In this document: one piece after another, positions 6,381 through 44,245 of the stretch
Position numbering within the stretch: the stretch's first letter is position 1
Layout of the letters: each line of letters starts with the position of its first letter
Position numbers and translations under genes: made by a program
Notes under the pieces: generated by a model
What the model was told of the DNA's origin: nothing
Databases searched by the model: none
Seen by the model: only the letters and a program-made list of their open reading frames with translations
Source: a virus
Strand: one strand, 5' to 3'
UHGV virus genome: UHGV-0091795
DNA length: 44,295 nt

Positions 6381-7429
6381 GAAATCGTCCCCAGAACCGC
6401 CAGTTCATTTTTCGCAATGGAGATATTGTCCGCCGGGGCAAGCAACTGATGGCTGTATTCCCCGTTCGCACCGGAAATCGCTTCACTGATACGTGACACC
6501 TTCAGTTCTCCCTGCGGATAACCATCACGCAGCAGGAACGAACGCAACTCGGCGGTGATGGCAGCCCGTATTTCCGGTGTGTCCGGCGTCACGCGGATAT
6601 GAAAATCCACTTTATGCGCCACCGGCCTGAATACATACAAATCAGAGCCTGCCACCGGGGCCAGTGGCTCGATATGTTGTCTTGCCGACGTTTCCGTTGA
6701 CTCTTCCGGAATGGGATTAATCAGGTCACTGCTGGCAATCATCACACCGACAGTCCCCGTTCCCATCCAGTGTCGGTATATCCATGCGCGGGTAATGCCG
6801 GGCACTTCTTTAGCCCAGACGACATAGTCCCCGTCAGCCCCGCCCTGAGGCGTCCAGTAATACCGCTCAATGACGCGGGCGCGCCACGTTTCCAGATCTT
6901 CAGCATCAAATCCGCCTGTCAGGGTGTCAGCCACACCGGAAGACGGCAGACCATTCACCGGCGTGACCAGGATTAATGCCGTACCGTCGTCAGTGTTACC
7001 GACCGCGCCTGCATTTGAGCAGGCGATCGGCACACGCAGGACACCACCGGAGCTGGTTGCATCGGCAGTTGCCGTGTACTGAACCAGGTCATCGCGCTGA
7101 ATCACGCTCCCGGCAGTCACCTTCAGGCCATCGCTGACACCTTCCCAGCGCATATACCCGCTGGCAGCCGTGGCCCCCTTGCGCGGACACCGTTTCATCG
7201 CAGCATGTCGCGCCAGCCAGGACTCATCGCACAGGTCAGGCAGCATGTTCATTGCCAGATAATCGATGTACCCGTAAACCGTATGCAGCGCCGCCGCATA
7301 CACCTTTGCCCGCACGTCTTCATCCATGCGCCGGAGCGTGTCGCTGACGTCCAGCCTGGCGAATAAATCGTTACGGAGCATACTGATATTTTCTGCCAGC
7401 GTCGGGCGCTGAAATTCACTGTCCGCCAT
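6371..7429 (-). CDS. baseplate J-like protein (Mu gp47-like)
   Basis: 352-aa ORF in a conserved position within the Mu-like baseplate block; overlapping start/stop coupling with neighbours. Confidence 0.55.
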
Positions 7430-26359: not shown

Positions 26360-26668
26360 GTGACTCACATGACAAAAACAGTATCAACCAGTAAAAAACC
26401 CCGTAAACAGCATTCGCCTGAATTTCGCAGTGAAGCCCTGAAGCTTGCTGAACGCATCGGTGTTACTGCCGCAGCCCGTGAACTCAGCCTGTATGAATCA
26501 CAGCTCTACAACTGGCGCAGTAAACAGCAAAATCAGCAGACGTCTTCTGAACGTGAACTGGAGATGTCTACCGAGATTGCACGTCTCAAACGCCAGCTGG
26601 CAGAACGGGATGAAGAGCTGGCTATCCTCCAAAAGGCCGCGACATACTTCGCGAAGCGCCTGAAATGA
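26360..26668 (+). CDS. insE: IS3 transposase OrfA
   Basis: 102-aa [35 protein letters not shown]... with HTH and leucine zipper, matching IS3 OrfA. Confidence 0.9.
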
Positions 26669-27531
26669 AGTATGTCTTTATTGAAAAACATCAGGCTGAG
26701 TTCAGCATCAAAGCAATGTGCCGCGTGCTCCGGGTGGCCCGCAGCGGCTGGTATACGTGGTGTCAGCGGCGGACAAGGATAAGCACGCGTCAGCAGTTCC
26801 GCCAACACTGCGACAGCGTTGTCCTCGCGGCTTTTACCCGGTCAAAACAGCGTTACGGTGCCCCACGCCTGACGGATGAACTGCGTGCTCAGGGTTACCC
26901 CTTTAACGTAAAAACCGTGGCGGCAAGCCTGCGCCGTCAGGGACTGAGGGCAAAGGCCTCCCGGAAGTTCAGCCCGGTCAGCTACCGCGCACACGGCCTG
27001 CCTGTGTCAGAAAATCTGTTGGAGCAGGATTTTTACGCCAGTGGCCCGAACCAGAAGTGGGCAGGAGACATCACGTACTTACGTACAGATGAAGGCTGGC
27101 TGTATCTGGCAGTGGTCATTGACCTGTGGTCACGTGCCGTTATTGGCTGGTCAATGTCGCCACGCATGACGGCGCAACTGGCCTGCGATGCCCTGCAGAT
27201 GGCGCTGTGGCGGCGTAAGAGGCCCCGGAACGTTATCGTTCACACGGACCGTGGAGGCCAGTACTGTTCAGCAGATTATCAGGCGCAACTGAAGCGGCAT
27301 AATCTGCGTGGAAGTATGAGCGCAAAAGGTTGCTGCTACGATAATGCCTGCGTGGAAAGCTTCTTTCATTCGCTGAAAGTGGAATGTATCCATGGAGAAC
27401 ACTTTATCAGCCGGGAAATAATGCGGGCAACGGTGTTTAATTATATCGAATGTGATTACAATCGGTGGCGGCGGCACAGTTGGTGTGGCGGCCTCAGTCC
27501 GGAACAATTTGAAAACAAGAACCTCGCTTAG
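26665..27531 (+). CDS. insF: IS3 transposase OrfB (DDE catalytic domain)
   Basis: 288-aa ORF overlapping orfA in the -1 frame, the IS3 frameshift arrangement; contains a DDE integrase-core region. Confidence 0.9.
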
Positions 27532-29698: not shown

Positions 29699-30090
29699 TT
29701 ATTTCGAACAATCAGCATCCATCTCCAATCGGAGATCCAACACCATCAGCATACCCTCCACTACGCCCTCAGCTTTCTGGAGCATCCTGCCAACCCAACA
29801 ATCAGATCGCCCATGTTTACGTGCAAGCGCCATAAACGTCATGCCGCCGACATAATAGTCCACCAATAAATCATGCAAATCGCTGTTGTTCTTTTTCAGA
29901 CGGCCATGCACCCGCAAATGATCATCGCGTCATCGTCACAACATTGTGGGCGAGATTTTACTTTTGAAGGAATTAATCCCTTAAAACCGGCGGCAATGGA
30001 CGACCAGGTCACATCTTCATGATTATTAGCCGCCCACGCTCCCCAACGCTCAAGAACCATCTGAATATCACGCATCAACTTACTCCACAA
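29699..30090 (-). pseudogene. late-gene antiterminator Q (phage 82/DLP12 QuuD-like), interrupted by a -1 frameshift
   Basis: Two overlapping ORFs (29896-30090 N-terminal part with Cys cluster [14 protein letters not shown]; 29699-29917 C-terminal part [13 protein letters not shown]...) read as one protein if a single base is restored at about 29917. Confidence 0.6.
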
Positions 30091-30297
30091 AAATCAGACC
30101 AGAACGCCAATTACAAGCAAAAATCAACAAAACAGTATTAGTTGATTGTTATCTCTGACTTCATACTCCTGCTCCTGTCAGGGTTTTGGCGTAATTCTTC
30201 AGTATTCGGTAATCGGTCAAAACAGAACCGGGGAAACGATATAAGCGCAGACGCCCCCAGCGGTGGCGAAGAAGTTCTGCCATATAAAACTCAAACA

Positions 30298-30660
30298 TCA
30301 TTCATTCCCCATTTCGGTGATGGTCAGTTCCAGCCTCCCACCTTTGGTAACAGGCATCTTCACAACGCGGTAATCAACGACCTGAGCATCATCCAGCCAG
30401 AAACCTGCTTTGGTGAGTGCGTCAAAAGCGGCTTTTTGCAGATTATCCAGGTCACGGCGACGGCGATCCGGCATGTGGCACTCAATACGGATTTTCACTG
30501 GCATAGCCAGGCCGATATCCAGCATTGCGTTTTTAATGATTCGGGTGACGTTATCGCGGTATGCCTGCCCTTCTGCGCTGATGTGTGTGCGCCCGCGATT
30601 ATGGCGGTAGTAGCGGTTATTGCTCGGCGGCCAGGGTAGTGTGATGTGGTAAGTATTCAC
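30298..30660 (-). CDS. rusA: Holliday-junction resolvase RusA
   Basis: 120-aa [39 protein letters not shown]..., the RusA family signature, in the nin region. Confidence 0.85.
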
Positions 30661-30947
30661 GCCTTAATTACCCCCTCTTTCAGCCAGATAACCTGCGTTC
30701 TCGCCATACCTTCCAGCGCGCATTCTTTTGCATATCCAGCGTTAACAAAATTCGTGCGACGGTCGATCTCATCGTGACAGGCAGAACATGCAATGGTGGC
30801 AATCAGGTCTGGCGGTTTAATACCGGTGCCGCACAATCCAGCCAGCCGGATATGTGCCAGTACAGACGTTTCAGGATTGCCATTACATACGCCAGGGATT
30901 CTTACCTGGCATTCCCGACCACGCGCTGCTTTTCTCAAATCAGCCAT
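30657..30947 (-). CDS. YbcO-like protein (DUF1364, putative nuclease)
   Basis: Cys-rich ORF starting at MADLRK with an upstream aggagg RBS, in the nin-region position of DLP12 ybcO. Confidence 0.55.
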
Positions 30948-31086
30948 GGTTCCTCCTTGCTGCCAGTCGCAACCATTTTTTATCAACCAGGCTGGCGGTA
31001 TATCCGAGCAGTGTTGGTATTTCGGATGGTTTCAGCTCAGGCTTACGCTTACGACGATTTGGTACTCTGTAGATGTGTCCGCTCAT
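30940..31086 (-). CDS. ninE: NinE-like small protein
   Basis: 48-aa ORF found by manual translation ([48 protein letters not shown]), basic N-terminus, in the nin-region position. Confidence 0.5.
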   Translation of the reverse strand: MSGHIYRVPNRRKRKPELKPSEIPTLLGYTASLVDKKWLRLAARRNHG

Positions 31087-31109
31087 GACACGAATAAGCG
31101 GTGTAGCCA

Positions 31110-31565
31110 TTACGCCTCCTGCTTGTCGCGCAGCAGCTGGAACTCGCAGCTCTGCGGAATAGTCAGGTGGCAGCCAATATTCATCGCCCAGGCTTCAACC
31201 TTACACAGGAAGACATACATCTCTCCGGTATCAAGATCGGAGGTATGGCGTAATGACTGAATAGTGGTGATCTCACCGGATACGACATCAACCAGTTCTT
31301 TGGTTTCATAACCGAGATAAGTGTGTTTGAGAGCATCTTTTACCCAATCTGGAGTGGCGAACGTTTTACCCCTGCTGATGAGGTATTCACTGATTTCGCT
31401 GTACCACATGTGGCTAAGTGCATTCTGGGAAAGACTGCGTCTCTCCCGCCACGGTTTAAGCACCATGCGAAAGCATTTGCCTTCCTCCAGATAAGGCTGG
31501 ATCTGCTGGCCGATAGCGGTGAAGTTGCCGCGATGTAATTTGATGCCGTCTTGTGGGAGGTTCAC
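31110..31565 (-). CDS. YbcN-like protein (DUF1367)
   Basis: 151-aa ORF in the nin region, resembling DLP12 YbcN. Confidence 0.55.
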
Positions 31566-31991
31566 GCTTCACCTCCGCAGAGGTCAAACGCAGGATGCAA
31601 AAAATCGCAGGTGCATTTCTGCATCTGTGAAGGGAGAAGAGAGTTTGGATTGTATGTGCGCATAAACGTCCCCGTTTAGCGCAACCCCACCACCGGGTGT
31701 TCAGGCCGACAGTAACTATATTATTCCCTACTGATTTTTGAAAATCAAAGGTCTTTATACGTCACACGAGAGCAAATATTTCCGAAGAAGAAACCTTTCG
31801 CCTTGAAAGGATAAAGAGTTCATTTCATAAATTGAAATATTCAATAAGAATATTGCAAAAAATGAAATTATTTACTAGCGAGTCTATCTAACTGATAATT
31901 ATGAAGATTGTAAGCGGTAGCAATCACCCGCATACACATTGAACAGGATTTAATACAAAACGTCTTAAATTGTCCGTAAGGAATAGCACGA

Positions 31992-33494
31992 ATGACTCAA
32001 ACTCCTCTATTACTTGCAATCATATTTTTATTGGTTGTTCTTGTTCTTTATATAGCTGCAATCAAACGCATCAAAAAAATACAATTAGAATTAAGTGATA
32101 GCAATCAAAAAAATGAAGAATACAAATCTCGCTTTGCAGATTATTTTAATGTAGAAGAAGAATGTAAGAAGCTTATTGAGAAAACAGAGCAAGAATGCTC
32201 CATAATAAAAGAAGAATCCCTAAAAGTAAAAGAAAATGCCAATAATGAACTAACAAACACCATTGAAAAAATGGATGGTATCAATAAACAAATCCAAGAG
32301 CTAAGAAGAACTTATAAAGAGAAGAAAGAAATATATGATAAACTAGTAAGGCAAATTTCTATTTATTCAGAAGATGTTGAGCTAGCCGAACTAGGATTTT
32401 ACGAACCTCATTTTAATTTTGAAGATTCAGAGCAATTTAAAAACAAAATAAAATCCATCAGGGATGAACAGAAATTAATGCTGCGGGATAAAACCCACTC
32501 TGGCGCAGTATATTGTACAACCCAATGGACTGTTGAAGGCTCTCGAGCAGAGGGTAAAAAAATGACAGACAGAAATATCAGGCTAACTACTAGAGCATTT
32601 AATAATGAATGTGATGCTGCAATTAGCAATTGCACGTGGAAAAACATCACTAAAATGGAAGAACGCATCACAAAGGCATTTGAGGCCATAAATAAACTAA
32701 ACGAGCAAAATCACATATATATAAACACTAAATACCTCAATAAAAAACTTGAGGAATTGTGGCTTACCCATGAATATCGTGAGCAAAAACAGAAAGAAAA
32801 AGAAGAACAGGCAGAAATAAGGGCACAAATGAGAGAGGAGGAGCGTGCACAACGAGAAATAGAAAAGGCCATGCAAGACGCAGAGGCAGAAGAGCGCCGT
32901 TATAAAAAAGCAATTGAAGCTGCAAGAAAGGAAATGGAAAAAGTTACTGGTGACATGAAGCAGCGCCTCGAAAATCGCATTGCCGAACTAGAACAGAGTT
33001 TGTCGCAGGCTGAATCAAAGCATCAAAGAGCATTATCCATGGCACAACAAACCAAACAAGGTCATGTTTATATTATTTCGAACATAGGTTCTTTTGGGGA
33101 GAATGTTTATAAAATAGGCATGACACGACGTCTTGATCCGCAAGACCGTGTAAATGAGCTCGGTGATGCATCTGTTCCTTTTATTTTTGATGTACATGCC
33201 ATGATTTATTCGGAGGACGCTCCATCATTAGAAAAAAAACTACATGATGTCTTCGATAAAAAGAGAGTCAATCTTGTAAATCGTAGAAAAGAGTTTTTCT
33301 ATGTTACTCTGGATGAGATCAAAGAAGCTGTTAAAAAACACTCTGATTCAGAAATTGAATTTATTGAGACAGCAGTCGCAAAAGACTTTAATGAGTCATT
33401 GGCTATTCGTAATCATGAAAATAAAAAAAGTGACAACAGCAACTCATCAATTATACCTGAGCGAAAAACCCCAGAGTTTGCAGATGCAATTTAA
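31992..33494 (+). CDS. membrane-anchored coiled-coil protein with C-terminal T5orf172/GIY-YIG-like domain (DUF4041-like architecture)
   Basis: 500-aa AT-rich ORF. It has an N-terminal TM helix (LLLAIIFLLVVLVLYIAAI), a long Lys/Glu-rich coiled-coil, and a C-terminal block GHVYIISNIGSFGENVYKIGMTRRLDPQDRVNELGD...FFYVTLDEIKEAV typical of the T5orf172 (GIY-YIG superfamily) domain. Transcribed opposite to the flanking early-right genes. Confidence 0.6.
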   Translation: MTQTPLLLAIIFLLVVLVLYIAAIKRIKKIQLELSDSNQKNEEYKSRFADYFNVEEECKKLIEKTEQECSIIKEESLKVKENANNELTNTIEKMDGINKQIQELRRTYKEKKEIYDKLVRQISIYSEDVELAELGFYEPHFNFEDSEQFKNKIKSIRDEQKLMLRDKTHSGAVYCTTQWTVEGSRAEGKKMTDRNIRLTTRAFNNECDAAISNCTWKNITKMEERITKAFEAINKLNEQNHIYINTKYLNKKLEELWLTHEYREQKQKEKEEQAEIRAQMREEERAQREIEKAMQDAEAEERRYKKAIEAARKEMEKVTGDMKQRLENRIAELEQSLSQAESKHQRALSMAQQTKQGHVYIISNIGSFGENVYKIGMTRRLDPQDRVNELGDASVPFIFDVHAMIYSEDAPSLEKKLHDVFDKKRVNLVNRRKEFFYVTLDEIKEAVKKHSDSEIEFIETAVAKDFNESLAIRNHENKKSDNSNSSIIPERKTPEFADAI

Positions 33495-33742
33495 TTAATT
33501 TGTAGTAGCAATAAAGCAGGCATCGTTGAGAATATTTTGTCAGCGATGCTTACTTCTCTAACAAAAACGGTGATTACCAACGAACTAACGGACTTCAGGT
33601 AATCATAAGACAAATGGAACGACTCTCCGGTGATTAGATCCCTGCAATAACAGTAATTTTCTACTAACTGAAAAATCTTTAACTGCCGCTCCTATTTCTA
33701 AGCTGACTGCTAGATTACATGGTGTGTTACCGATGAAAACCG

Positions 33743-34045
33743 TCACAGCAAGTTTAAGTTCATATCTCCATACACTGCCAACACTCGTTTCATCGCGGCA
33801 CTCTGGCGACACTCCTTGAAAATCAGATTCGTGCTCACCTTTCCTTCCCGTTCTTCCCTGGTAGCGAAGCGGTAATACACCGTTCGCCAGACCTTACCAT
33901 CAATGACTAAGATTCCTGCCCGTGCCATTTTAGCCGCAGCCTGATTTATACTGGTTACTGTTGCGCCTGTTACCGCAGCAACGTCCTGCGCACAGAAGCT
34001 CTTATGCGTCCCCAGGTAATGAATAATTGCCTCTTTGCCCATCAT
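33743..34045 (-). CDS. ren: Ren protein
   Basis: 100-aa ORF MMGKEAIIHYLGTHKSFCAQDVAAVTGATVTSINQAAAKMARAGILVIDGKVWRTVYYRFATREEREGK, near-identical to lambda Ren. Confidence 0.85.
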   Translation of the reverse strand: MMGKEAIIHYLGTHKSFCAQDVAAVTGATVTSINQAAAKMARAGILVIDGKVWRTVYYRFATREEREGKVSTNLIFKECRQSAAMKRVLAVYGDMNLNLL

Positions 34046-34743
34046 ACAGTTGCTCCTTTCAGTCCGAACTTCGCTTTGATTTCTGCGATCTTCGCCAGAG
34101 CCTGTGCACGATTTAGAGGTCTACCGCCCATGACAGGAAGTTGTTTTACTGGTTCAGGTATCGCCTCACCACGGTTAATTCGCGCGGTCATACAAGTCAG
34201 TTCATCGGCAGCCTTGCGCCGTAATTCCGCATCAGTAAGCGCATTGGCCCGCATGTTCTGGTACAGGTTGGTAACCAGCCAGTAGTGCGCGTTTGATTTC
34301 CACGGATAAGACTCTGCATCCGGATACAGGCCACGCTTCCGACAATACTCATAGACCATATCAACCAGCTCGCTGACGTTTGGCAGCCCGGCGTTAACGG
34401 ATGCTTCTTCCCGGCACCAGGCAACAAACTGCCCGGGTGATGGCAGGAATGGTCGATTCTGCCGACGGGCTACGCGCATTCCTGCGTTAACCTGTTCCAT
34501 TGTGGTGATCCCGTTTTCCCGGAAAGCCAGCACCCACTGGCGGCGGATTTCGTTCAGTTCGTTCTGGTCCCGGTTAGCCACGCTCGCCGGGAAAGTTGCC
34601 AGTAACTGGCGGAACACACCATTGATAATCTGCGCTACCTGCTGTACCTGCGGCTTTTCGTCGTACTGTTCCGGCATGTTATTGGCGATCCGGCGCATCT
34701 GCTCACGGTCAAAATTAACTATCTGTGCGGCGATGTTTTTCAT
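34042..34743 (-). CDS. P: replication protein P (DnaB helicase loader)
   Basis: 233-aa ORF MKNIAAQIVNFDREQMRRIANNMPEQYDEKPQVQQVAQIINGVF..., near-identical to lambda P. Confidence 0.9.
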   Translation of the reverse strand: MKNIAAQIVNFDREQMRRIANNMPEQYDEKPQVQQVAQIINGVFRQLLATFPASVANRDQNELNEIRRQWVLAFRENGITTMEQVNAGMRVARRQNRPFLPSPGQFVAWCREEASVNAGLPNVSELVDMVYEYCRKRGLYPDAESYPWKSNAHYWLVTNLYQNMRANALTDAELRRKAADELTCMTARINRGEAIPEPVKQLPVMGGRPLNRAQALAKIAEIKAKFGLKGATV

Positions 34744-35669
34744 AGCTCCACCCCGTAAATCCAGTCAGTGTTCGTCAGGTCGAGTTTTGATTTTCCGGCT
34801 GTCACGCCAGCCTGTTGCTTGTTACGGTTGATTTCGAGTTGGGTCCACTTGTCGCGGAGTTTGGCCGGACTTAGCACGTTACCGGACCAGAAGTTGTCCT
34901 GGCATGCCCAGCGGAACAGCACGCACATGTCGCGGTGGTTACGTCCGTCACGTTCACGCATCAGGCGGATATCGTTAGCCCACCCTGCAAAATTCGGTTT
35001 TCTGGCTGATGGCGCGATGATCTTCACCATGTCAAACATCCACTCTGCGGCGGTCAGGTCTTCTGCTGTCCCCCACTTGCTGCCGCTCTGAATCGCAGCA
35101 TCCGGTTTCACCACAGGAAGGGCATTTTCTGGCTGGTCAGAGGATTCGTCAGAATTCTCGGACGAAAAAGGTTTTATATTGTCTTTTGTTAGTTTGTCTT
35201 TTGTGTTTACCTGATTCGGGTAAGTGCCTTTACCTGATTTGGGTAAACTTTTCTTACCTGATTCAGGTAAATTTATCTCTTTCAGGTAAACTTTATTTTT
35301 CTTACCTGATTCGGGTAATGTTGACCATTCACTGACCACATTATTAATGCCGATATTCCGCCCGCTCTGAATAAGAATCCCACGCTTTACCAGAACGCTT
35401 TTTGCAGCAGAACACTTGTGCGGCAATATCCCGGTTAACTCGGAAAGTTGCTCGTTGCTCACCCAATCCAGTTTTTTATTAAAGCCATATGTTTTGCGCA
35501 TGACAGCCAGGAAGACCAGAAGCTGGTGCTGTGTTAATCCGGCCAGCATTACAGCTTCCAGCAACTCATTTGCAATGCGCGTATAACCATCATCGAGATC
35601 TGCCACGCGCGGCTCCTTTTGTGCCACATCCGGCACTGGAAAATTGAATATCTCAGCAGTGTTTGCCAT
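34740..35669 (-). CDS. O: replication initiator O
   Basis: C-terminal half is near-identical to lambda O (KPDAAIQSGSKWGTAEDLTAAEWMFDMV...TNTDWIYGVEL); the N-terminal DNA-binding part is diverged. Start chosen at MANTAEIFNF with a gggagg RBS; the iterons lie inside the gene. Confidence 0.85.
   Translation of the reverse strand: MANTAEIFNFPVPDVAQKEPRVADLDDGYTRIANELLEAVMLAGLTQHQLLVFLAVMRKTYGFNKKLDWVSNEQLSELTGILPHKCSAAKSVLVKRGILIQSGRNIGINNVVSEWSTLPESGKKNKVYLKEINLPESGKKSLPKSGKGTYPNQVNTKDKLTKDNIKPFSSENSDESSDQPENALPVVKPDAAIQSGSKWGTAEDLTAAEWMFDMVKIIAPSARKPNFAGWANDIRLMRERDGRNHRDMCVLFRWACQDNFWSGNVLSPAKLRDKWTQLEINRNKQQAGVTAGKSKLDLTNTDWIYGVEL
35207..35318. repeat. replication origin iterons (O-binding sites)
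   Basis: Four copies of the 17-bp palindrome-like repeat TTACCTGATT(C/T/C)(G/G/A)GGTAA at 35207, 35230, 35254 and 35302, plus a degenerate copy near 35281, with roughly 24-bp periodicity inside O. Confidence 0.8.
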
Positions 35670-35755
35670 AATTCCTCCCGCAATGAGTGTGTTACGATTT
35701 GCACCTGAAAGTCGGTTCTGTTCGCGCAGACCGGCTTTCGCCATTTCTGAACCTG

Positions 35756-36295
35756 TCATATTGCCCCCAGCATGGTGGTGACCATCGCCATCAGTGGACC
35801 AGCCAGATCCGGGTCCACACGAAACATCGACACAATGCCTTCACTCATCTCCTTCAGTTTCTGGTGGCGTGGTGCGTTGAGAATGACAGCCTGTTTTGCC
35901 TCACTGAGTTCCTTTTCCATTTCAGCCAGCCGAGCCATGAAGCTATCCTGCTCAACCAGGTGGCCGCGATATTCCAGCGGTAGTACCGCCAGAATTGCCG
36001 GGGTCAGTTCACGCACGTTATTTCGGTATTTTTCAGAATCGAATTTGTTATCGAGGAAGCGGAACAGCTTCTGGCGTGCACGGCTGACATCATCAGGGAA
36101 ATCGATGGTGCCGCCGCCCTGCTCCCGATACTCATTCACAATGAGTGCGGCAACAACATCCTGATTATCTGCAGCCGACCAGGCGCGGACGGCATCACGG
36201 ATTTTTTCGTGGCCTGGCGCCTGTTTTGTTTGAGAACGATTTATCACCGCAGTCGGGCTAAATCCGCTAGTCTGTTGGTATGTAAGTGGTTGCAT
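35756..36295 (-). CDS. YdaT-like protein in the cII position
   Basis: 179-aa ORF immediately downstream of cro; the segment LTPAILAVLPLEYRGHL resembles Rac prophage YdaT. Confidence 0.45.
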   Translation of the reverse strand: MQPLTYQQTSGFSPTAVINRSQTKQAPGHEKIRDAVRAWSAADNQDVVAALIVNEYREQGGGTIDFPDDVSRARQKLFRFLDNKFDSEKYRNNVRELTPAILAVLPLEYRGHLVEQDSFMARLAEMEKELSEAKQAVILNAPRHQKLKEMSEGIVSMFRVDPDLAGPLMAMVTTMLGAI

Positions 36296-36325
36296 AGTAA
36301 TTGCCTTATCAGTTAACGCCGCAGA

Positions 36326-36559
36326 TTAGGCGGCAGAATTACTCGCGTTAAACAATGGTGCGAGGTCGGGACGAATATCTGCTGGTTTAATCTTTCCACC
36401 AGTGGCTGAGACAATTTTCATTACATAGCGGGCATCAATTCCGCCACCGTGTAGCCAACGCCAAACAGTGGGTTGGGCTACACCGCATAGATCTGCCAGT
36501 CGTTTTTGACTACCTGTAATACTGATTGCGAGTTGAATGGTCTGATTTGTCATCATCAA
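36326..36559 (-). CDS. cro: Cro-like HTH repressor
   Basis: 77-aa ORF with HTH (QKRLADLCGVAQPTVWRWLHG), divergent from cI, with an RBS-like aggaa upstream. Confidence 0.7.
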   Translation of the reverse strand: MMMTNQTIQLAISITGSQKRLADLCGVAQPTVWRWLHGGGIDARYVMKIVSATGGKIKPADIRPDLAPLFNASNSAA

Positions 36560-36584
36560 TTCCTATTGGTATTGCAACGAATAG

Positions 36585-36613
36585 ATAATAGCAATGCGTA
36601 TTAAACCAAGCAA
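36585..36613 (-). promoter_or_regulatory. pR-like promoter for cro
   Basis: On the minus strand: -35 TTGCTT, 17-nt spacer, -10 TATTAT, about 25 nt upstream of the cro ATG; overlaps ATAGCAAT-type motifs. Confidence 0.5.
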
Positions 36614-36627
36614 TAGCAAAACGTGTT

Positions 36628-36656
36628 TTGACCATCAATACGCAAGCGTATAAATT
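36628..36656 (+). promoter_or_regulatory. pRM-like promoter for cI (near-leaderless transcript)
   Basis: -35 TTGACC (36628-36633) with a TATAAAT-like -10 at about 36649-36656, only a few nt before the cI ATG at 36664. Confidence 0.4.
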
Positions 36657-36663
36657 AAAACTT

Positions 36664-37356
36664 ATGAAAAAAGAAACTCTTGCTGATCGCTTAAACCTAG
36701 CGATGGAACAATCTGGAATGTCTCAAGGCGCTCTTGCAAAGGCGTCTGGCGTAGCTCAACCCACAATCTGGAGACTGACAAGCGGCAACGCGCGCGGCTC
36801 AACAAAAATTGTTGAAATAGCTAATGCATTGGGTGTTCGAACAGAGTGGCTTTCATCAGGCATAGGCCCGATGAGAAATGACGGTCAACAATCAGGAAAG
36901 CCTGCTGTCAACCATTCCAAATACTTCAAGATTGACGTTCTTGATATAGAAGTCAGTGCTGGGCCGGGTGTCATCAACCGTGAGTTTGTAGAAGTCCTAC
37001 GCTCGGTTGAGTACTCGTTTGACGATGCTCGTCACATGTTCGATGGCAGGAAGGCAGAAAATATCCGCATCATTAACGTACGCGGTGACAGCATGTCAGG
37101 AACGATCGAACCAGGTGATCTGCTGTTCGTTGATATCACTGTTAAATCTTTCGACGGTGATGGTATCTATGCGTTTCTGTACGACGACACTGCCCATGTA
37201 AAGCGCCTGCAAATGATGAAGGATAAGCTGCTGGTTATCTCTGATAACAAGAGCTACTCACCGTGGGATCCGATCGAGAAAGACGAGATGAACCGAGTGT
37301 TCATCTTTGGGAAAGTTATTGGGAGTATGCCTCAGACATATAGGAAGCATGGTTAA
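36664..37356 (+). CDS. cI: CI-like repressor (HTH + S24 LexA-like autopeptidase domain)
   Basis: N-terminal HTH (MSQGALAKASGVAQPTIWRL) and C-terminal S24 motifs (VRGDSMSGTIEPGDLLFVD, HVKRL Ser/Lys dyad). Confidence 0.8.
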   Translation: MKKETLADRLNLAMEQSGMSQGALAKASGVAQPTIWRLTSGNARGSTKIVEIANALGVRTEWLSSGIGPMRNDGQQSGKPAVNHSKYFKIDVLDIEVSAGPGVINREFVEVLRSVEYSFDDARHMFDGRKAENIRIINVRGDSMSGTIEPGDLLFVDITVKSFDGDGIYAFLYDDTAHVKRLQMMKDKLLVISDNKSYSPWDPIEKDEMNRVFIFGKVIGSMPQTYRKHG

Positions 37357-37478
37357 AGTGAGGCTAAAAAACAGTTACAGCAATAGGCCTGTTGTTTTTC
37401 TTTAAACACGCAGTGTTAAACCGCTCTTTGAGATGCGGAGTAATGAGATGGAAGACTTGAATCACATAAGGGTTAGTG

Positions 37479-38228
37479 ATGGAGTGCGTAGCGAGCAGCA
37501 ATAGTGCAATACCTAATGTCGTTGAGGTAATACGTCGCATCAATGAAGGTTCCACTCAGCCATTTCTTTGCAAATGTGATGATGGGCAGTTGTATGTTTT
37601 GAAGTCAAAACCATCAATGCCCCCGAAAAATCTCTTAGCTGAGTTCATTTCGGCGTGTTTGGCTAATGATATCGGCCTTCCTTTACCTGACTTTAAAATC
37701 GTATTTGTGCCAGAGGAACTTATAGAGTACTCACCTGATCTGCAGCAACAAATTTGTACAGGATATGCCTTTGCTTCATTGTTCATTGACGGTGCAATAG
37801 CGTTAACGTTTACGCAGTCAAGAAACGAAACGATCATCCCAGTCGAACAGCAAAAATTAATCTATGTTTTTGATAAATGGATATTAAATGCAGACAGAAC
37901 GCTTACTGACAAAGGTGGAAACGTTAACATCCTTTATGACATCAGTAACGATAAGTATTATCTGATTGACCATAATCTCTCATTTGATCAGAATGCTGGA
38001 CCTGAAGATTTTTCTGTGCACGTGTACGGCCCTGGTAACCGCAAATGGCAATATGATTTAGTGGATCGCGTAGAGTACCGCCAGAGGGTCGTTAACAGTT
38101 TACACAAGCTTCCTGCTATCCTTGACGAAATTCCAGAAGAGTGGATAGTAGATGAGGAGTTTTTACCTTTTGTCTGCACTACGCTAGACAAAGGTGATTG
38201 TGATGAATTTTGGAGCGCAATAGAATGA
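37479..38228 (+). CDS. kinase-like protein (tentative HipA/PI3K-like catalytic core), first gene of the immunity-region cassette
   Basis: 249-aa ORF directly downstream of cI on the same strand; contains YYLIDHNLSFD, reminiscent of catalytic loops of HipA/PI3K-like atypical kinases. Family assignment is tentative. Confidence 0.45.
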   Translation: MECVASSNSAIPNVVEVIRRINEGSTQPFLCKCDDGQLYVLKSKPSMPPKNLLAEFISACLANDIGLPLPDFKIVFVPEELIEYSPDLQQQICTGYAFASLFIDGAIALTFTQSRNETIIPVEQQKLIYVFDKWILNADRTLTDKGGNVNILYDISNDKYYLIDHNLSFDQNAGPEDFSVHVYGPGNRKWQYDLVDRVEYRQRVVNSLHKLPAILDEIPEEWIVDEEFLPFVCTTLDKGDCDEFWSAIE

Positions 38229-39052
38229 CAACTCCATGCCTATATAGCATCGTTCGCTATGCGCCTTATGCGGAGACTGAAGAGTTCGCAAACATAGGCG
38301 TACTTCTGTGCGCGCCAAAAGAAAATTACTTTGATTTCCAGCTCACAAAGCGAAATGACTCTCGTGTAAAGAATTTTTTCCATGATGATTGTATTTTCCC
38401 TGTAGCAAAAGACTCAATACAAAGAGAACTACAGTTCGCAAAAATGCATGCGACCCAGATTGTTGGACATCAACAACTTGCACAATTCTTCAGATATTTT
38501 ACAAACAAAAAAGAATCAATTTTTCAGTTCAGTTCTACGAGAGTGATTCTCAGCGAAAACCCAAAAGAAGAGCTGGCCCGCATTTACAATAAATATGTAA
38601 ACCACTCTGACTACACAAAAGAGCGCCGTGAAGATGTTCTAGCCAGAGAGCTAAAACGAAGTATCGATAGAATAGATGGATTGAAGAACGTCTTCAAACA
38701 AGCAACCATTGATGGGTATTTCGCAAAGTTCTCAATGCCATTGGTCGCCAAGAAGCATGACAGGATCCAATGTGCCATCAAACCTCTGGCATTCACTCAA
38801 GCTGAACCAGGAAAAATGATGGAGCATAGTGATACTTGGGTGATGAGAATAACTCGAGCAGCAGAAGAAAACCTGCTTTCACTTGATGACATTTTATTCA
38901 CAATTGAAACTCCTGAATCACCAAACTCAGGCCAAAGCAAAGTTATTGACATCATAAAGAGAACTATGGATGCTAAGAAAATAAATCATATACCTGCATC
39001 CAACCACAAAGAAACTATTGATTTTGCAAAAAAAATACTTCCCCAAGTTTAA
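38225..39052 (+). CDS. DUF3037-like protein, second gene of the immunity-region cassette
   Basis: ATG overlaps the upstream stop (ATGA). N-terminus LYSIVRYAPYAETEEFANIGVLL fits the DUF3037-type pattern (Y.I.RY.P....EEF.N.GV.L). Confidence 0.55.
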   Translation: MTTPCLYSIVRYAPYAETEEFANIGVLLCAPKENYFDFQLTKRNDSRVKNFFHDDCIFPVAKDSIQRELQFAKMHATQIVGHQQLAQFFRYFTNKKESIFQFSSTRVILSENPKEELARIYNKYVNHSDYTKERREDVLARELKRSIDRIDGLKNVFKQATIDGYFAKFSMPLVAKKHDRIQCAIKPLAFTQAEPGKMMEHSDTWVMRITRAAEENLLSLDDILFTIETPESPNSGQSKVIDIIKRTMDAKKINHIPASNHKETIDFAKKILPQV

Positions 39053-39087
39053 AATTTATTTTTGTATGTGATATTCCTTATTAATAA

Positions 39088-39114
39088 CCCGGCCACCGTG
39101 CCGGGTTTTCTTTT
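39088..39114 (+). terminator. intrinsic terminator ending the cI-cassette transcript
   Basis: cccggc-caccgt-gccggg hairpin followed by TTTTCTTTT, 36 bp after the DUF3037-like stop. Confidence 0.75.
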
Positions 39115-39254
39115 GCCTCCCCTCATCACACAAACCGCTCAAAAAACCACCACAACCCCGCTTCAGTTATCGCTATGCGATGCAAGTCACAAAATTAATT
39201 CTTTTTGCTATCAAACATTTAATATCAAAACACATCTAACGATAGCAATAAGTA

Positions 39255-39283
39255 TTGATATCACCAATAGCAATAGCTATTAT
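39255..39283 (+). promoter_or_regulatory. pL-like early-left promoter with overlapping operator motifs
   Basis: -35 TTGATA, 17-nt spacer, -10 TATTAT; ATAGCAAT motifs (39242-39249, 39266-39273) match motifs in the cI-cro intergenic region. Confidence 0.55.
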
Positions 39284-39388
39284 CACCATATCGCAACAAC
39301 ACAACGATACGGCAACCACCTGATTCACCGTTGCGATGACCGCTTAGATCCGCAGCTTGATTTCAGCAGGCTCCGGGGAGTGCGAGGG

Positions 39389-39592
39389 GTGAAACGGACG
39401 CGTGAACGTCGGTGTGACCAGCTGAAATCAACTCAACACTTCATACCTCAGTTGCTTCAACGAGGCGACTTAGTTATGACAACCGGCGGCCATCCACCGC
39501 CAAATACTGCGCAACCCCTTATTTGTTCAGCAGCCCAGCTTACGGGCAGGAGTTTTTATGGTTCATCAACATTACGGAACGCAGACCGTTAA
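39389..39592 (+). CDS. candidate N-like antiterminator (arginine-rich N-terminus, GTG start)
   Basis: 67-aa frame beginning GTG with a GGGGAG RBS 8 nt upstream; N-terminus MKRTRERRCDQLK resembles the arginine-rich motif of lambdoid N proteins. Highly tentative. Confidence 0.25.
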   Translation: MKRTRERRCDQLKSTQHFIPQLLQRGDLVMTTGGHPPPNTAQPLICSAAQLTGRSFYGSSTLRNADR

Positions 39593-39764
39593 TCGCGGTG
39601 CGGTCATGCCAGGAATGCTGGTCAAACACAAAGATGGTACCTGGACTGCATCAGCTAATTTACGCGGACGGCTTTATCTGCATCGCGGCATCGAGCGCAC
39701 TTATACCCGTGATTTGCTCGTGGAAGTTTTTCTCGACGGACGCGGTAACGGCCTGAATCACTAA
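39558..39764 (+). CDS. small hypothetical protein in the kil/cIII position
   Basis: 68-aa ORF with an aggag RBS 7 nt before the ATG, immediately upstream of gam. Confidence 0.4.
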   Translation: MVHQHYGTQTVNRGAVMPGMLVKHKDGTWTASANLRGRLYLHRGIERTYTRDLLVEVFLDGRGNGLNH

Positions 39765-39840
39765 CCCCCCTTTCCTGTTTTCCTAATCAGCCTGGCATTT
39801 CGCGGGCGATATTTTCACAGCCATTTTCAGGAGTTCAGCC

Positions 39841-40137
39841 ATGAACGCTTATTACATTCAGGATCGTCTTGAGGCTCAGAGCTGGGCGCGTCACTACCAG
39901 CAGATCGCCCGTGAAGAGAAAGAGGCAGAACTGGCAAACGACATGGAAAAAGGCCTGCCCCAGCACCTGTTTGAATCGCTATGCATCGATCATTTGCAAC
40001 GCCACGGGGCCAGCAAAAAAGCCATTACCCGTGCGTTTGATGACGATGTTGAGTTTCAGGAGCGCATGGCAGAACACATCCGGTACATGGTTGAAACCAT
40101 TGCTCACCACCAGGTTGATATTGATTCAGAGGTATAA
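39841..40137 (+). CDS. gam: Gam (RecBCD inhibitor), short form
   Basis: 98-aa [59 protein letters not shown]..., near-identical to lambda Gam. Confidence 0.9.
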
Positions 40138-40142
40138 AACGG

Positions 40143-40928
40143 ATGAGTACAGCACTCGCAACGCTGGCAGGGAAGCTGGCTGAACGTGTCGGCATGGATT
40201 CTGTCGACCCACAGGAACTGATCACCACTCTTCGCCAGACGGCATTTAAAGGTGATGCCAGCGATGCGCAGTTCATCGCATTGTTGATCGTCGCCAACCA
40301 GTACGGCCTTAATCCGTGGACGAAAGAAATTTACGCCTTCCCTGATAAGCAGAACGGCATCGTTCCGGTGGTGGGCGTTGATGGCTGGTCCCGCATCATC
40401 AATGAAAACCAGCAGTTTGATGGCATGGACTTTGAGCAGGACAATGAATCCTGTACATGCCGGATTTACCGCAAGGACCGTAATCATCCGATCTGCGTTA
40501 CCGAATGGATGGATGAATGCCGCCGCGAACCATTCAAAACTCGCGAAGGCAGAGAAATCACGGGGCCGTGGCAGTCGCATCCCAAACGGATGTTACGGCA
40601 TAAAGCCATGATTCAGTGTGCCCGTCTGGCCTTCGGATTTGCTGGTATCTATGACAAGGATGAAGCCGAGCGCATTGTCGAAAATACTGCATACACTGCA
40701 GAACGTCAGCCAGAACGCGACATCACTCCGGTTAACGATGAAACCATGCAGGAGATTAACACTCTGCTGATCTCCCTGGATAAAACATGGGATGACGACT
40801 TATTGCCGCTCTGTTCCCAGATATTTCGCCGCGACATTCGCGCATCGTCAGAACTGACACAGGCCGAAGCAGTGAAAGCTCTTGGATTCCTGAAACAGAA
40901 AGCCACTGAGCAGAAGGTGGCAGCATGA
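40143..40928 (+). CDS. bet: Bet (Red-beta single-strand annealing protein)
   Basis: 261-aa [62 protein letters not shown]..., near-identical to lambda Bet. Confidence 0.9.
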
Positions 40929-41605
40929 CACCGGACATTATCCTGCAGCGTACCGGGATCGACGTGAGAGCTGTCGAACAGGGGGATGATGCATGGCACA
41001 AATTACGGCTCGGCGTCATCACCGCTTCAGAAGTTCACAACGTGATAGCAAAGCCCCGATCAGGAAAGAAGTGGCCTGACATGAAAATGTCCTACTTCCA
41101 CACCCTGCTGGCTGAGGTTTGCACCGGTGTGGCTCCGGAAGTTAACGCTAAAGCGCTGGCCTGGGGAAAACAGTACGAGAACGACGCCAGAACCCTGTTT
41201 GAGTTCACTTCCGGCGTAAATGTTATTGAATCCCCGATCATCTATCGCGACGAAAGTATGCGCACCGCCTGCTCTCCCGATGGTTTATGCAGTGACGGCA
41301 ATGGCCTTGAGCTGAAATGCCCGTTTACCTCCCGGGATTTCATGAAGTTCCGGCTCGGTGGTTTCGAGGCCATAAAGTCGGCTTACATGGCCCAGGTGCA
41401 GTACAGCATGTGGGTGACGCGAAAAGATGCCTGGTACTTTGCCAACTATGACCCGCGTATGAAGCGTGAAGGCCTGCATTATGTCGTGATTGAGCGGAAT
41501 GAAAAGTACATGGCGAATTTTGACGAGATGGTGCCGGAGTTCATCGAAAAAATGGACGTGGCACTGGCTGAAATTGGTTTTGTATTTGGGGAGCAATGGC
41601 GATGA
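40925..41605 (+). CDS. exo: Exo (Red-alpha 5'-3' exonuclease)
   Basis: 226-aa [47 protein letters not shown]..., near-identical to lambda Exo. Confidence 0.9.
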
Positions 41606-42240: not shown

Positions 42241-42338
42241 ACATGAAAAGCAAAATCATCAGGGAGCTACAGGCTCCTTTTTTATTATTCGCATTCACCC
42301 TCAAGCGTATTAACCAACAATTCAGGGATTAATGAAAG

Positions 42339-42883: not shown

Positions 42884-43205
42884 GGCCTGTCAGTTTCTCA
42901 AGATATCCAGACCTACCGCTACCAACTGGATACGAACAGGCCGCCTACAGGCAACACGCAAAGACCCCACTAAACTAAAATCTCCTTACCTCACAACACG
43001 ACAAGCCTGCATTGCGGCACTTCAGTCTCCGCTGCATACTGTCAAGGTGAGCGCGGGTGATGGCATAACAGAGGAAAGAAAATGTCACTCTTCCGCAGAA
43101 GTGAAATATGGTACGCCAGTTTCACATTGCCGAACGGTAAAAGATTTAAACAGTCTCTTGGAACAAAGGACAAAAGGCAGGCGACAGAGCTCCATGACAA
43201 GCTAA
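42855..43205 (+). CDS. xis: excisionase (P22 Xis-like)
   Basis: [38 protein letters not shown]... (winged-helix excisionase), overlapping the int start as in P22. Confidence 0.8.
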
Positions 43206-44245
43206 AGGCTGAAGCATGGCGGGTCAGCAAACTTGGTGAAATACCTGATATGACGTTCGAGGAAGCGTGTGTCAGGTGGCTTGAAGAGAAAGCACATAAA
43301 AAATCACTGGACGATGACAAAAGCCGGATCGGATTCTGGCTTCAACATTTCGCAGGGATGCAATTAAGAGACATTACTGAATCAAAAATTTATTCAGCAA
43401 TTCAGAAAATGACGAACCGGCGTCATGAGGAAAACTGGAAACTCAGGGCAGAAGCATGCAGAAAAAAAGGGAAACCTGTTCCAGAATACACGCCAAAACC
43501 AGCGTCCGTTGCAACGAAGGCAACGCATCTTTCATTTATAAAGGCCCTGCTAAGAGCCGCAGAGCGTGAATGGAAAATGCTGGATAAGGCACCAATTATT
43601 AAAGTGCCTCAACCAAAGAATAAACGGATCCGCTGGCTGGAGCCTCATGAAGCACAAAGGCTGATTGATGAATGTCCGGAGCCATTAAAGTCTGTTGTTG
43701 AATTTGCACTGGCAACAGGTTTAAGACGCTCAAACATCATCAACCTTGAATGGCAACAAATAGACATGCAGCGCCGGGTGGCATGGATAAACCCGGAAGA
43801 GAGTAAATCAAACCGCGCAATTGGCGTTGCGCTGAATGATACTGCATGTCGTGTATTGAAAAAACAAATCGGGAATCATCACCGTTGGGTATTTGTGTAC
43901 AAGGAAAGCTGTACCAAACCAGACGGAACGAAAGCGCCAACAGTAAGGAAGATGCGGTATGACGCAAACACAGCCTGGAAAGCGGCGCTGAGACGGGCTG
44001 GTATTGATGATTTCAGATTTCACGACTTGAGACACACCTGGGCAAGTTGGCTGGTTCAAGCCGGAGTCCCGTTGTCAGTGTTACAGGAAATGGGAGGCTG
44101 GGAGTCTATCGAAATGGTTCGTCGATATGCTCACCTTGCACCTAATCACCTTACCGAACACGCACGGCAAATAGACTCGATCCTGAACCCATCGGTCCCA
44201 AATTTGTCCCAGTCAAAAAATAAGGAAGGTACTAATGATGTGTAA
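43082..44245 (+). CDS. int: tyrosine integrase (P22 Int-like)
   Basis: 387-aa [50 protein letters not shown]... with catalytic region [15 protein letters not shown]...VRRYAHL; ends 14 bp before the tRNA 3' end. Confidence 0.9.

Follow-up and report, generated by a model that had tools for sequence, protein, structure and literature searches.

A modular and probably non-coding pL leader in an Escherichia coli prophage family that lacks an N gene

The subject of this analysis is the early-left region of the UHGV virus genome UHGV-0091795 (44,295 nucleotides, hereafter the window), in which a stretch of 268 nt with no recognised gene separates the pL promoter from kil. The initial annotation had noted that no obvious N gene follows the promoter, and had suggested that a GTG-initiated open reading frame (ORF) with an arginine-rich start might encode a divergent, short N-like antiterminator. 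We find that this stretch (39290-39557) is most likely the untranslated, modular leader of a cI-controlled pL transcript, and that it is probably non-coding and does not hold an N gene. Four parts can be told apart in it: an allele-specific 5' end, a lineage-specific segment (Part A), a structured RNA module of two hairpins (Part B) and, after a variable linker, a cassette for the initiation of kil translation. By sequence comparison, Part B is the conserved core of the phage phi80 tL1 region, at the boundary of immediate-early and delayed-early genes. Prophages of this family carry no N gene, and the GTG frame most likely arises as a by-product of the leader.

Part B is a covarying RNA module shared with phi80 and HK639

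BLAST comparison with distant phages returned a single part of the leader, 39440-39513, which matched HK225, Enterobacter phages and one Klebsiella phage upstream of kil. Within it, the 17-mer GGCGGCCATCCACCGCC (39485-39501) has exact matches in at least 120 viral contigs. The order of elements in these contigs is CATACC, a hairpin of variable sequence, (T)TAGTTATGACAACC, an invariant second hairpin, a linker, a Shine-Dalgarno cassette with a small hairpin, and a start codon. Hairpin 1 of the window (39442-39478, + strand) consists of a 5' arm at 39442-39455 and a 3' arm at 39465-39478 joined by 12 pairs, with two conserved internal mismatches. Its loop (39456-39464) ends in GAG, and an ATG at 39476-39478 pairs with an invariant CAT at 39442-39444. 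Hairpin 2 (39485-39501, + strand, GGCGG-CCATCCA-CCGCC) comes after a conserved single-stranded ACAACC, and the match is exact across 39479-39501.

The pairing of hairpin 1 was assessed on 47 distinct sequences. Both sides change in 9 of the 12 pairs, and 98.4% of the cells are paired, compared with 84% after shuffling and 31-53% when the partners were slid; none of 500 shuffles reached the observed covariation score. G-U pairs are frequent, which favours the transcribed strand. The region 39433-39570 folds with a z-score of -2.67. A covariance model of the element (R1) found one copy only in the window, at 39433-39504 (88.9 bits), and usually one copy per ~10-kb locus in the viral loci.

The surroundings of Part B are diverse. 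A T-run terminator lies directly upstream of it in 73 of 102 distinct instances, and the window type accounts for 23. The genes downstream are of at least 35 different kinds, and those upstream are equally diverse. The next start codon is on the same strand, at a median distance of 61 nt from hairpin 2; in the window, 56 nt separate 39501 from the kil ATG (39558). The element and its linker have a C/G ratio of 1.36 (1.65 in the unpaired parts) versus 0.97 in the flanks, a composition like that of Rho utilization (rut) sites. A scan of 35000-40500 against Rfam at E values up to 1 gave nothing, and Part B is absent from Rfam 15. It would be an undescribed structured RNA family at the immediate-early/delayed-early boundary of many enterobacterial lambdoid phages.

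Three other identities for Part B were considered and rejected. A promoter inside it, which might account for its place after terminators, would require an acceptable -35/-10 spacing, and neither strand has one. Pairing of the hairpin 2 loop with the downstream ribosome-binding site was dropped after no consistent complementarity was found over three cassette types. The resemblance to an integron attC-like site is loose (GTTATG versus GTTRRRY), and the G-U pairs argue for RNA. As a separate observation, one viral contig (L128) carries a tRNA-like 3' portion (GGTTCGAATCC...CTCCACCA) at ~6960-7060 on the - strand, between two tandem copies of Part B that are ~600 nt apart; it may represent part of a tRNA gene or what is left of an att site.

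Phages phi80 and HK639 were found by BLAST of a typical Part B copy against phage records, and neither had been used to build R1. Phi80 (M11919.1, NC_021190.1) has the same RNA element, with an R1 score of 74.5 bits against the 88.9 of the window. There the element stands directly after N and the rho-independent tL1A and ends ~110 nt before tL1B, which is annotated as rho-dependent; the GenBank record M11919, from 1985, labels its region 't-L1 regulatory signal'. The linker, the design of the Shine-Dalgarno cassette and the place in the early-left operon upstream of kil are also alike in phi80 and the window, whereas N, nutL and the tL1A hairpin before the element are missing from the window. 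In HK639 (76.9 bits) the element follows a terminator located downstream of an annotated 'putL-like antiterminator RNA'. HK639 hairpin 2 and its T-run are annotated 'terminator' in GenBank, whereas no T-run follows hairpin 2 in the window. The termination role of Part B in the window is a prediction from the GenBank annotation of these two phages.

The GTG frame varies among relatives

The GTG frame (39389-39592, + strand) has 67 codons and starts VKRTRERRCDQLK, with GGGGAG at 39375-39380 and a spacing of 8 nt. The frame, the GGGGAG and the arginine-rich start are all present as first described. The proposal of a divergent N-like antiterminator does not hold: the frame has no similarity to N, it is accompanied by no nut site, it varies among relatives, and its last two-thirds translate a stretch that is constrained as RNA structure, residues 19-38 being the translation of the covarying Part B hairpin module. 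It also belongs to a stop-free stretch of 180 codons (39053-39592) that runs through the upstream terminator and the promoter, and the openness of the frame is therefore no evidence of coding. Searches of Pfam and PHROGs (E up to 1) that recognised kil gave no match to the GTG frame, and PDB sequences gave only chance matches to antibody chains. RefSeq annotation of E. coli genomes has nothing between pL and kil.

We compared 99 distinct versions of the leader from phage records and from viral contigs retrieved via sequences outside Part A. The GTG frame extends for 125 codons, fused to Kil, in 50 of the 99 relatives, and stops after 20 codons in 31, including the plaque-forming PhiR5_1. The remaining relatives have frames of 29 codons (4/99), 67 codons as in the window (4/99), 68 codons (2/99), 122 codons (2/99) or 39 codons (1/99), and in 5/99 the start motif was not found. 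Only the first 13 codons are constant. The TAG that interrupts the frame at codon 21 in 33 of the 99 comes from a C-to-T change at 39449, and a 5-nt TCAAC insertion occurs in 5-6 of the 99. Position 39449 is a conserved mismatch position of hairpin 1, so that the change is neutral for the RNA and a nonsense change for a protein. The linker (39502-39525, + strand) has in the window the rarer allele AAATACTGCGCAACCCCTTATTTG, which resembles the linkers of contigs L022, L038, L067 and L088; it is 2 nt shorter than the common allele, and for this reason the GTG frame is not fused to kil in the window.

Non-singleton variable sites are about as dense in codons 1-13 (0.13 per nt) as in Part B (0.12) and kil (0.11), and variable sites show no clear excess at third codon positions. 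A comparable frame was found in contig L032, where a GTG-started arginine-rich frame crosses a sequence closely homologous to putL, an RNA proven to be non-coding, and continues into the same '...LHRGGLVMTTGGHPPP' peptide encoded by Part B. Such frames can therefore arise by chance in G/C-rich leader RNA. We conclude that the GTG frame very probably does not encode an N antiterminator, and that on sequence grounds it would not be a gene and would amount at most to a leader peptide of 13-20 residues. The frame overlaps kil as lambda cIII does, and a cIII analogue was also considered; it was ruled out, as there was no PHROG or Pfam match.

Known antitermination devices were not detected

Searches of Pfam and PHROGs, and of phmmer with lambda N as the query, were all negative and bear out the statement that no N gene follows pL. 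The phmmer search covered all 437 open frames of at least 20 amino acids in 29.5-44.3 kb, and its best hit (E 0.4) was not in the GTG frame. The search of the pL leader for boxA and boxB, which had yielded nothing convincing in the initial annotation, was run again with the same outcome; the best boxA had 3 mismatches in 8 positions and there was no 5-bp stem with a pentaloop. No ops sequence was found in the pL leader. No nut pair was found between the leader and the pR transcript (30000-36627, - strand), where the best local alignment scored 23 and shuffled leaders scored 23.2 ± 2.4. Remnants of N or nutL were likewise not detected.

An Rfam control on HK022 revealed that Rfam has no put family, and a put model (R2) was built instead from 12 sequences: HK022 putL and putR, and ten homologues located upstream of Part B in viral contigs. 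As a positive control, R2 gave 100.8 bits on the independently annotated putL of HK639. Its best match in the window had an E value of 1.4 and lay outside the leader (30684-30761), and nothing was found in relatives of the window type, including 4A7 and Perceval. The leader does not match put in sequence and structure, the hallmarks of put being the invariant CGAACGGC, GTCGG, GGCG, CAAT and two stems. No second copy of any leader element was found after pR, either by comparing the leader with the - strand of 30000-36627 or with R1.

By these sequence searches, the family is one of prophages without a known early antitermination device, whether N/nut or put. The use of another antitermination mechanism, which had been offered as the alternative to an N-like protein, agrees with these results but is not proved by them. 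Through ren and before the nin region, the pR operon shows no intrinsic terminator that is convincing, and the terminator that lies farther along the pL operon at 42261-42279 is absent from 4A7 and Perceval; a need for antitermination is thus not established.

Part A and the 5' end of the leader

Part A (39324-39444, + strand) is a lineage-specific leader segment of E. coli prophages of the DLP12/Bievrevirus type. It was found in E. coli phages and prophages only, and is present in 2210 of 5426 complete E. coli genomes, mostly at 95-99% identity. No divergent homologues were found in phages or in nine other genera, whose pL-kil leaders differ. Folding of Part A was no better than that of shuffled sequence (z-scores -0.72, -0.14 and +0.10), the changes among relatives were one-sided with no compensatory changes, the relatives being too similar to each other for a covariation test, and no coding signal was detected. 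The slot directly upstream of Part B that Part A occupies holds nutL and N in phi80 and putL in the HK639-like phages (L032, L035 and HK639), and the junction AATCAAC...TTCATACC is common to Part A leaders and to contigs in which putL adjoins Part B.

With HK022 and HK639 the window shares a lambdoid organisation without N, and the evidence that links Part A to putL in their pL leaders is positional only. Part A differs from put in having no match to the put model, no blastn similarity, no left/right pair and no predicted stable two-stem fold. Every known put system has one left and one right copy, and put acts via the zinc-binding domain of the RNA polymerase beta-prime subunit with no need of protein factors (PMC9378689).

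The 5' end of the leader (39290-39323, + strand) is allele-specific and C/A-rich, with a GC skew of -0.27 to -0.48, and 39292-39323 is replaced in the O157-type allele. It contains CAACAACACAAC at 39294-39305, a perfect 12-nt complement to nt 72-83 of GcvB (the R1 seed of that RNA) that is missing from the O157-type allele. The duplex predicted between GcvB and the first 40 nt of the leader has an energy of -36.2 kcal/mol; shuffles average -24.8 ± 3.8, with 5 of 500 reaching the observed value, and 24 of 4426 tiles across the window are as good. Judged from this complementarity, CAACAACACAAC may be a GcvB target or sponge, or may be due to chance. It had also raised the suspicion of an AgvB anti-small RNA, an identity that was rejected because AgvB, with a length of 51-60 nt, is located at the pR' moron site (PMC4104026).

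Other leaders were observed in prophages of Citrobacter, Kluyvera, Enterobacter and Silvania (L014-L020). Their pL-to-kil leaders are 75-155 nt long and different from that of the window, with the common start ATCG(A/C)NAACA and a GTTCCGCCAGCCTGGCGACAAGG hairpin motif, to which the longer form adds a long hairpin with imperfect pairing. Part B and put are both absent from these leaders, which may be another leader RNA family.

The pL promoter and the upstream terminator

The window's + strand corresponds to the leftward direction of lambda. Here oL/pL (39242-39289, + strand) has ATAGCAAT operator repeats around a promoter with its -35 (TTGATA) at 39255-39260 and its -10 (TATTAT) at 39278-39283. 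Promoter-like sites are no more or less numerous in 35500-40200 than expected by chance, and TTGATA-17-TATTAT is the best sigma-70 match among them (10 of 12 positions). The alignment of 39242-39289 with the cI/cro intergenic region (36588-36635) is 71% identical over 48 nt, and the ATAGCAAT repeats are common to both. Relatives with two other immunity alleles retain a -35/-10 pair at the pL position, and sequence common to all immunity alleles restarts only at ~39324. The recurrence of the repeats at cI/cro, the retention of the promoter pair in the other alleles and the resumption of common sequence downstream identify the promoter as pL; the near-consensus promoter called earlier was thereby confirmed. 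Transcription probably starts at ~39290, a position that we infer from the -10 spacing and the likeness to ATCGAAACGAAACA, the leader start of phi80 and HK639.

The intrinsic terminator described upstream of pL was likewise found, at 39086-39107 (+ strand), with an 8-pair stem that includes 6 GC pairs and is followed by the T-run TTCTTTTG. It is kept in relatives, closes the cI / HipA_2 / DUF3037 transcription unit and has the position of lambda's immunity terminator. Between this terminator and the pL operators, the tract 39117-39167 is very C-rich and G-poor, with a GC skew down to -0.73; it is rut-like in composition and could serve as a reserve Rho site against transcription that runs on from the cI operon.

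kil, its initiation cassette and the downstream pL operon

The leader ends in the kil translation-initiation cassette (39526-39557, + strand), composed of GTTC, a small hairpin (GCCC 39533-36 / GGGC 39544-47), AGGAG and TTTTT. With 0.03 non-singleton variable sites per nt it is the least variable stretch, and cassettes of this design, with small hairpins that covary, stand before many different genes. The pL operon has kil (39558-39764, + strand) as its first real gene, which encodes a cell-division inhibitor of 68 amino acids and is overlapped by the GTG frame for 35 nt. Its product matches phrog_294 (E 1e-37, profile positions 13-80 of 83) and PF27398, and is named 'phage encoded cell division inhibitor protein' in RefSeq. 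The initial annotation gave the correct observations and positions for the region upstream, and overlooked kil, which lies between the leader and gam.

Homologues of Kil in other genera have 68 amino acids, and where gene finders extend them upstream, the added parts bear no relation to one another. A long Kil of 125-139 amino acids, as annotated in Perceval and some PhiR phages, was rejected on the grounds that only the 68 amino acids are conserved across genera, that HK225 has in-frame stops upstream, and that the fusion is broken in many relatives. In GenBank, 'Kil' has 96-139 amino acids in Perceval, PhiR5_1, PhiR47_2 and PhiR26_1 (L002, L006, L007 and L009), where gene callers extend it into the leader, and in PhiR30_1 (L005) the GTG frame itself is labelled Kil.

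Downstream of kil are gam (39841-40137), bet (40143-40928) and exo (40925-41605), followed by small genes, xis and int (43082-44245), all on the + strand. A strong intrinsic terminator lies within this operon at 42261-42279 (+ strand), upstream of a DksA-like gene, xis and int. It has 8 pairs (AGGGAGC-TAC-AGGCTCCTT), then the T-rich TTTTTATTATT, and is present in the EC96 and O157 prophages.

The prophage and its relatives

The window contains a prophage of the DLP12/Bievrevirus type, integrated via intD, the name that RefSeq gives to the integrase of a near-identical E. coli prophage. Its cI gene (36628-37356, + strand) is separated from pL by a HipA_2 kinase / DUF3037 cassette (37476-39052, + strand) in the rexAB slot. 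The HipA_2 kinase matches PF20613 (E 1e-76), and the same pair is annotated in PhiR5_1 as HipA toxin / HipD antitoxin. The cassettes of relatives in the slot between cI and pL differ, with GevT/GevA, a SIR2 protein, an ASCH protein or a lipoprotein, and the slot gives the impression of a hotspot at which defence or toxin-antitoxin cassettes are exchanged.

On the other side of cI are a YdaS-type cro and a YdaT-type cII-like gene, then O, P and ren. The spacing between cro and the cII-like gene is 30 nt, which leaves no room for a nutR/tR1 region. Farther along, at 31992-33494, a gene for a 500-amino-acid coiled-coil protein lies between ren and ninB on the opposite (+) strand and interrupts the pR operon. 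Its RefSeq homologue is a DUF4041 protein, frameshifted in that copy from strain EC96, and the gene looks like a moron or defence gene.

The complete relatives 4A7 and Perceval (genus Bievrevirus) have the order ybcN-ninE-rusA-Q-porin-lysis known from DLP12, and their sole annotated antiterminator is of the Q type. In the window, the gene for the Q-type late antiterminator (29699-30090, - strand) is split into two ORFs, which match phrog_79 positions 16-84 and 85-151. The split indicates a frameshift and, together with the non-phage or insertion sequence (IS) DNA left of ~29.7 kb, a defective prophage. Where the prophage is truncated on the left, an IS3-family element (26360-27531) adjoins blc and an AraC-type gene; its two overlapping ORFs are typical of programmed frameshifting.

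Discussion

The sequence comparisons favour a modular pL leader that probably encodes neither N nor any other protein. Part B with its linker, being C-rich, G-poor and partly structured, would act on the nascent transcript as a module for Rho loading or attenuation. This role is suggested by the composition and by the annotation of the rho-dependent tL1B just downstream in phi80, and a Rho-dependent attenuator at Part B can be put forward only tentatively. In the lysogen, leaky transcription from pL would end before it reached kil, which is toxic, and the red genes. Once the prophage is induced, heavy transcription together with translation from the strong kil ribosome-binding site, or a function of Part A, would let RNA polymerase pass.

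Two better-known systems bear on this proposal. With lambda the window shares a pL controlled by cI operators, a long leader, kil-gam-bet-exo downstream and the arginine-rich start of the first open frame; it differs in lacking an N homologue, boxA/boxB and a counterpart of nutR. The kil gene of the rac prophage in E. coli K-12 is reportedly silenced by Rho and NusG, in work attributed to Cardinale et al. of 2008. In rac, too, a toxic prophage division inhibitor comes after a repressed early promoter, and a long untranslated C-rich leader could load Rho. The Kil family and the leader sequence are different in rac, and Rho dependence in the window is a prediction.

Several observations count against an untranslated leader or against the proposed mechanism. 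Codons 1-13 of the GTG frame are nearly invariant, the sole common polymorphism in them being synonymous (39394 A/G) alongside one rare missense change. ATG replaces GTG in 11 of the 99 relatives, all 11 being one haplotype that also has the codon-21 stop; the GGGGAG is a plausible Shine-Dalgarno sequence; and the frame is placed exactly at the N position of phi80. Part A is no more conserved among relatives than the neighbouring genes, and its conservation is therefore silent on function. The Rho-loading role of Part B comes from position, composition and GenBank annotation; in phi80, tL1B lies in a downstream gene that is absent from the window, and the 23 window-type instances have Part A in place of a tL1A-type terminator before Part B. 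Lastly, the terminator at 42261-42279 suggests a possible need for a read-through device. The leader would then be the obvious candidate, and a passive Part A would be the wrong reading.

We consider it doubtful that Part A, or the arginine-rich frame of 13-20 codons inside it, is a third, undescribed device for early antitermination. One form of this idea, rather improbable in our estimate, is that Part A is a new cis-acting antiterminator RNA, put-like in function and unrelated in sequence, which would modify the polymerase as it leaves pL and let it pass Part B and later terminators such as that at 42261-42279. The order pL, device, Part B, delayed-early genes speaks for it, the device being nutL and N in phi80 and putL in HK639 (putL abuts Part B in L032 and L035). 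The shared junction AATCAAC...TTCATACC also favours Part A as the device, as do the strong intrinsic terminator inside the window's pL operon and the existence of viable phages (4A7, Perceval, PhiR phages, Turner) with this leader and without N or put. Put-like mechanisms have already been supposed for lambdoid phages that lack N (PMC12315714). Against an antiterminator RNA stand the lack of a thermodynamic signal or compensatory substitution in Part A, although its relatives are too similar to test conserved structure, and the lack of a second copy in the pR operon, unlike the known put systems (PMC9378689). The need for such a device is also not established, with no convincing terminator in pR and with the 42261 terminator missing from 4A7 and Perceval.

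It is less probable still, and in our view unlikely, that the GTG/ATG frame yields a short arginine-rich peptide (13-20 functional residues) that binds the leader RNA in an N-like or regulatory manner, or that its translation controls the access of Rho to Part B. Its start, KRTRERRCDQLK, resembles arginine-rich motifs, such as the TRRRERRAEKQ of lambda N, and the near-constancy of codons 1-13, the use of both GTG and ATG starts, the GGGGAG 8 nt upstream and the phi80 N position would all fit a peptide. The regions of lambda N that bind NusA and RNA polymerase and are needed for antitermination lie beyond residue 34, and in the GTG frame the sequence past residue 13-20 varies or is missing. Similarity to N was not found, and neither was a boxB-like hairpin or a second target site. 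The variability of codons 1-13 is like that of Part B and kil, without a clear third-position excess, and the putL homologue of L032 illustrates that arginine-rich frames arise by chance in such RNA. The relatives differ, moreover, on whether translation would stop before Part B or cross it, which is hard to square with a conserved mechanism coupled to translation.

A conserved leader peptide encoded by Part B itself is very improbable. It would start at the ATG at 39476 (MTTGGHPPP...) and would regulate the downstream gene by polyproline ribosome stalling. The sequence ATG-ACA-ACC-GGC-GGC-CAT-CCA-CCG-CC is almost invariant in more than 100 contigs, and the GAG(G) in the loop of hairpin 1 could be a Shine-Dalgarno sequence. 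However, this ATG is the partner of the invariant CAT in the pairing that closes hairpin 1, and in contig L092 both sides change together, with loss of the ATG. Indels of 1-2 nt between the ATG and hairpin 2 shift the frame in L023, L059, L089, L099 and L124, and the conserved linker nucleotides GCGCAGAAGTCT fall in different frames in different variants. The paired change and the frame-shifting indels indicate that the conservation of MTTGGHPPP reflects a constraint on the RNA and not on a peptide.

That the lack of N is decay, nutL and N having been deleted from a defective prophage (Q frameshift; non-phage/IS DNA left of ~29.7 kb) with the leader as debris, is extremely improbable. At least 15 phage records, among them the plaque-forming or induced 4A7, 4C10, Perceval, PhiR series, Turner and IdasGreatGrand, have pL, the leader and kil arranged in the same way at 90-96% identity; the leader is present in 2210 of 5426 complete E. 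coli genomes; and no fragment of N or nutL was detected.

A modular, probably non-coding leader has consequences for annotation. The GenBank 'Kil' proteins of 96-139 amino acids are over-extended into the leader, and the covarying hairpin module, which is not in Rfam, could be curated as an RNA family. Lambdoid early control has two textbook solutions, the N protein acting at nut sites and the put RNA of HK022. The family described here, found in ~40% of complete E. coli genomes and in viable phages, is negative for both and yet keeps the tL1-region element, an obstacle that its relatives have to overcome by means of N or put. Either its early-left operon, with a toxic division inhibitor and the Red genes, runs without processive antitermination, or the 120-nt Part A hides a new device.

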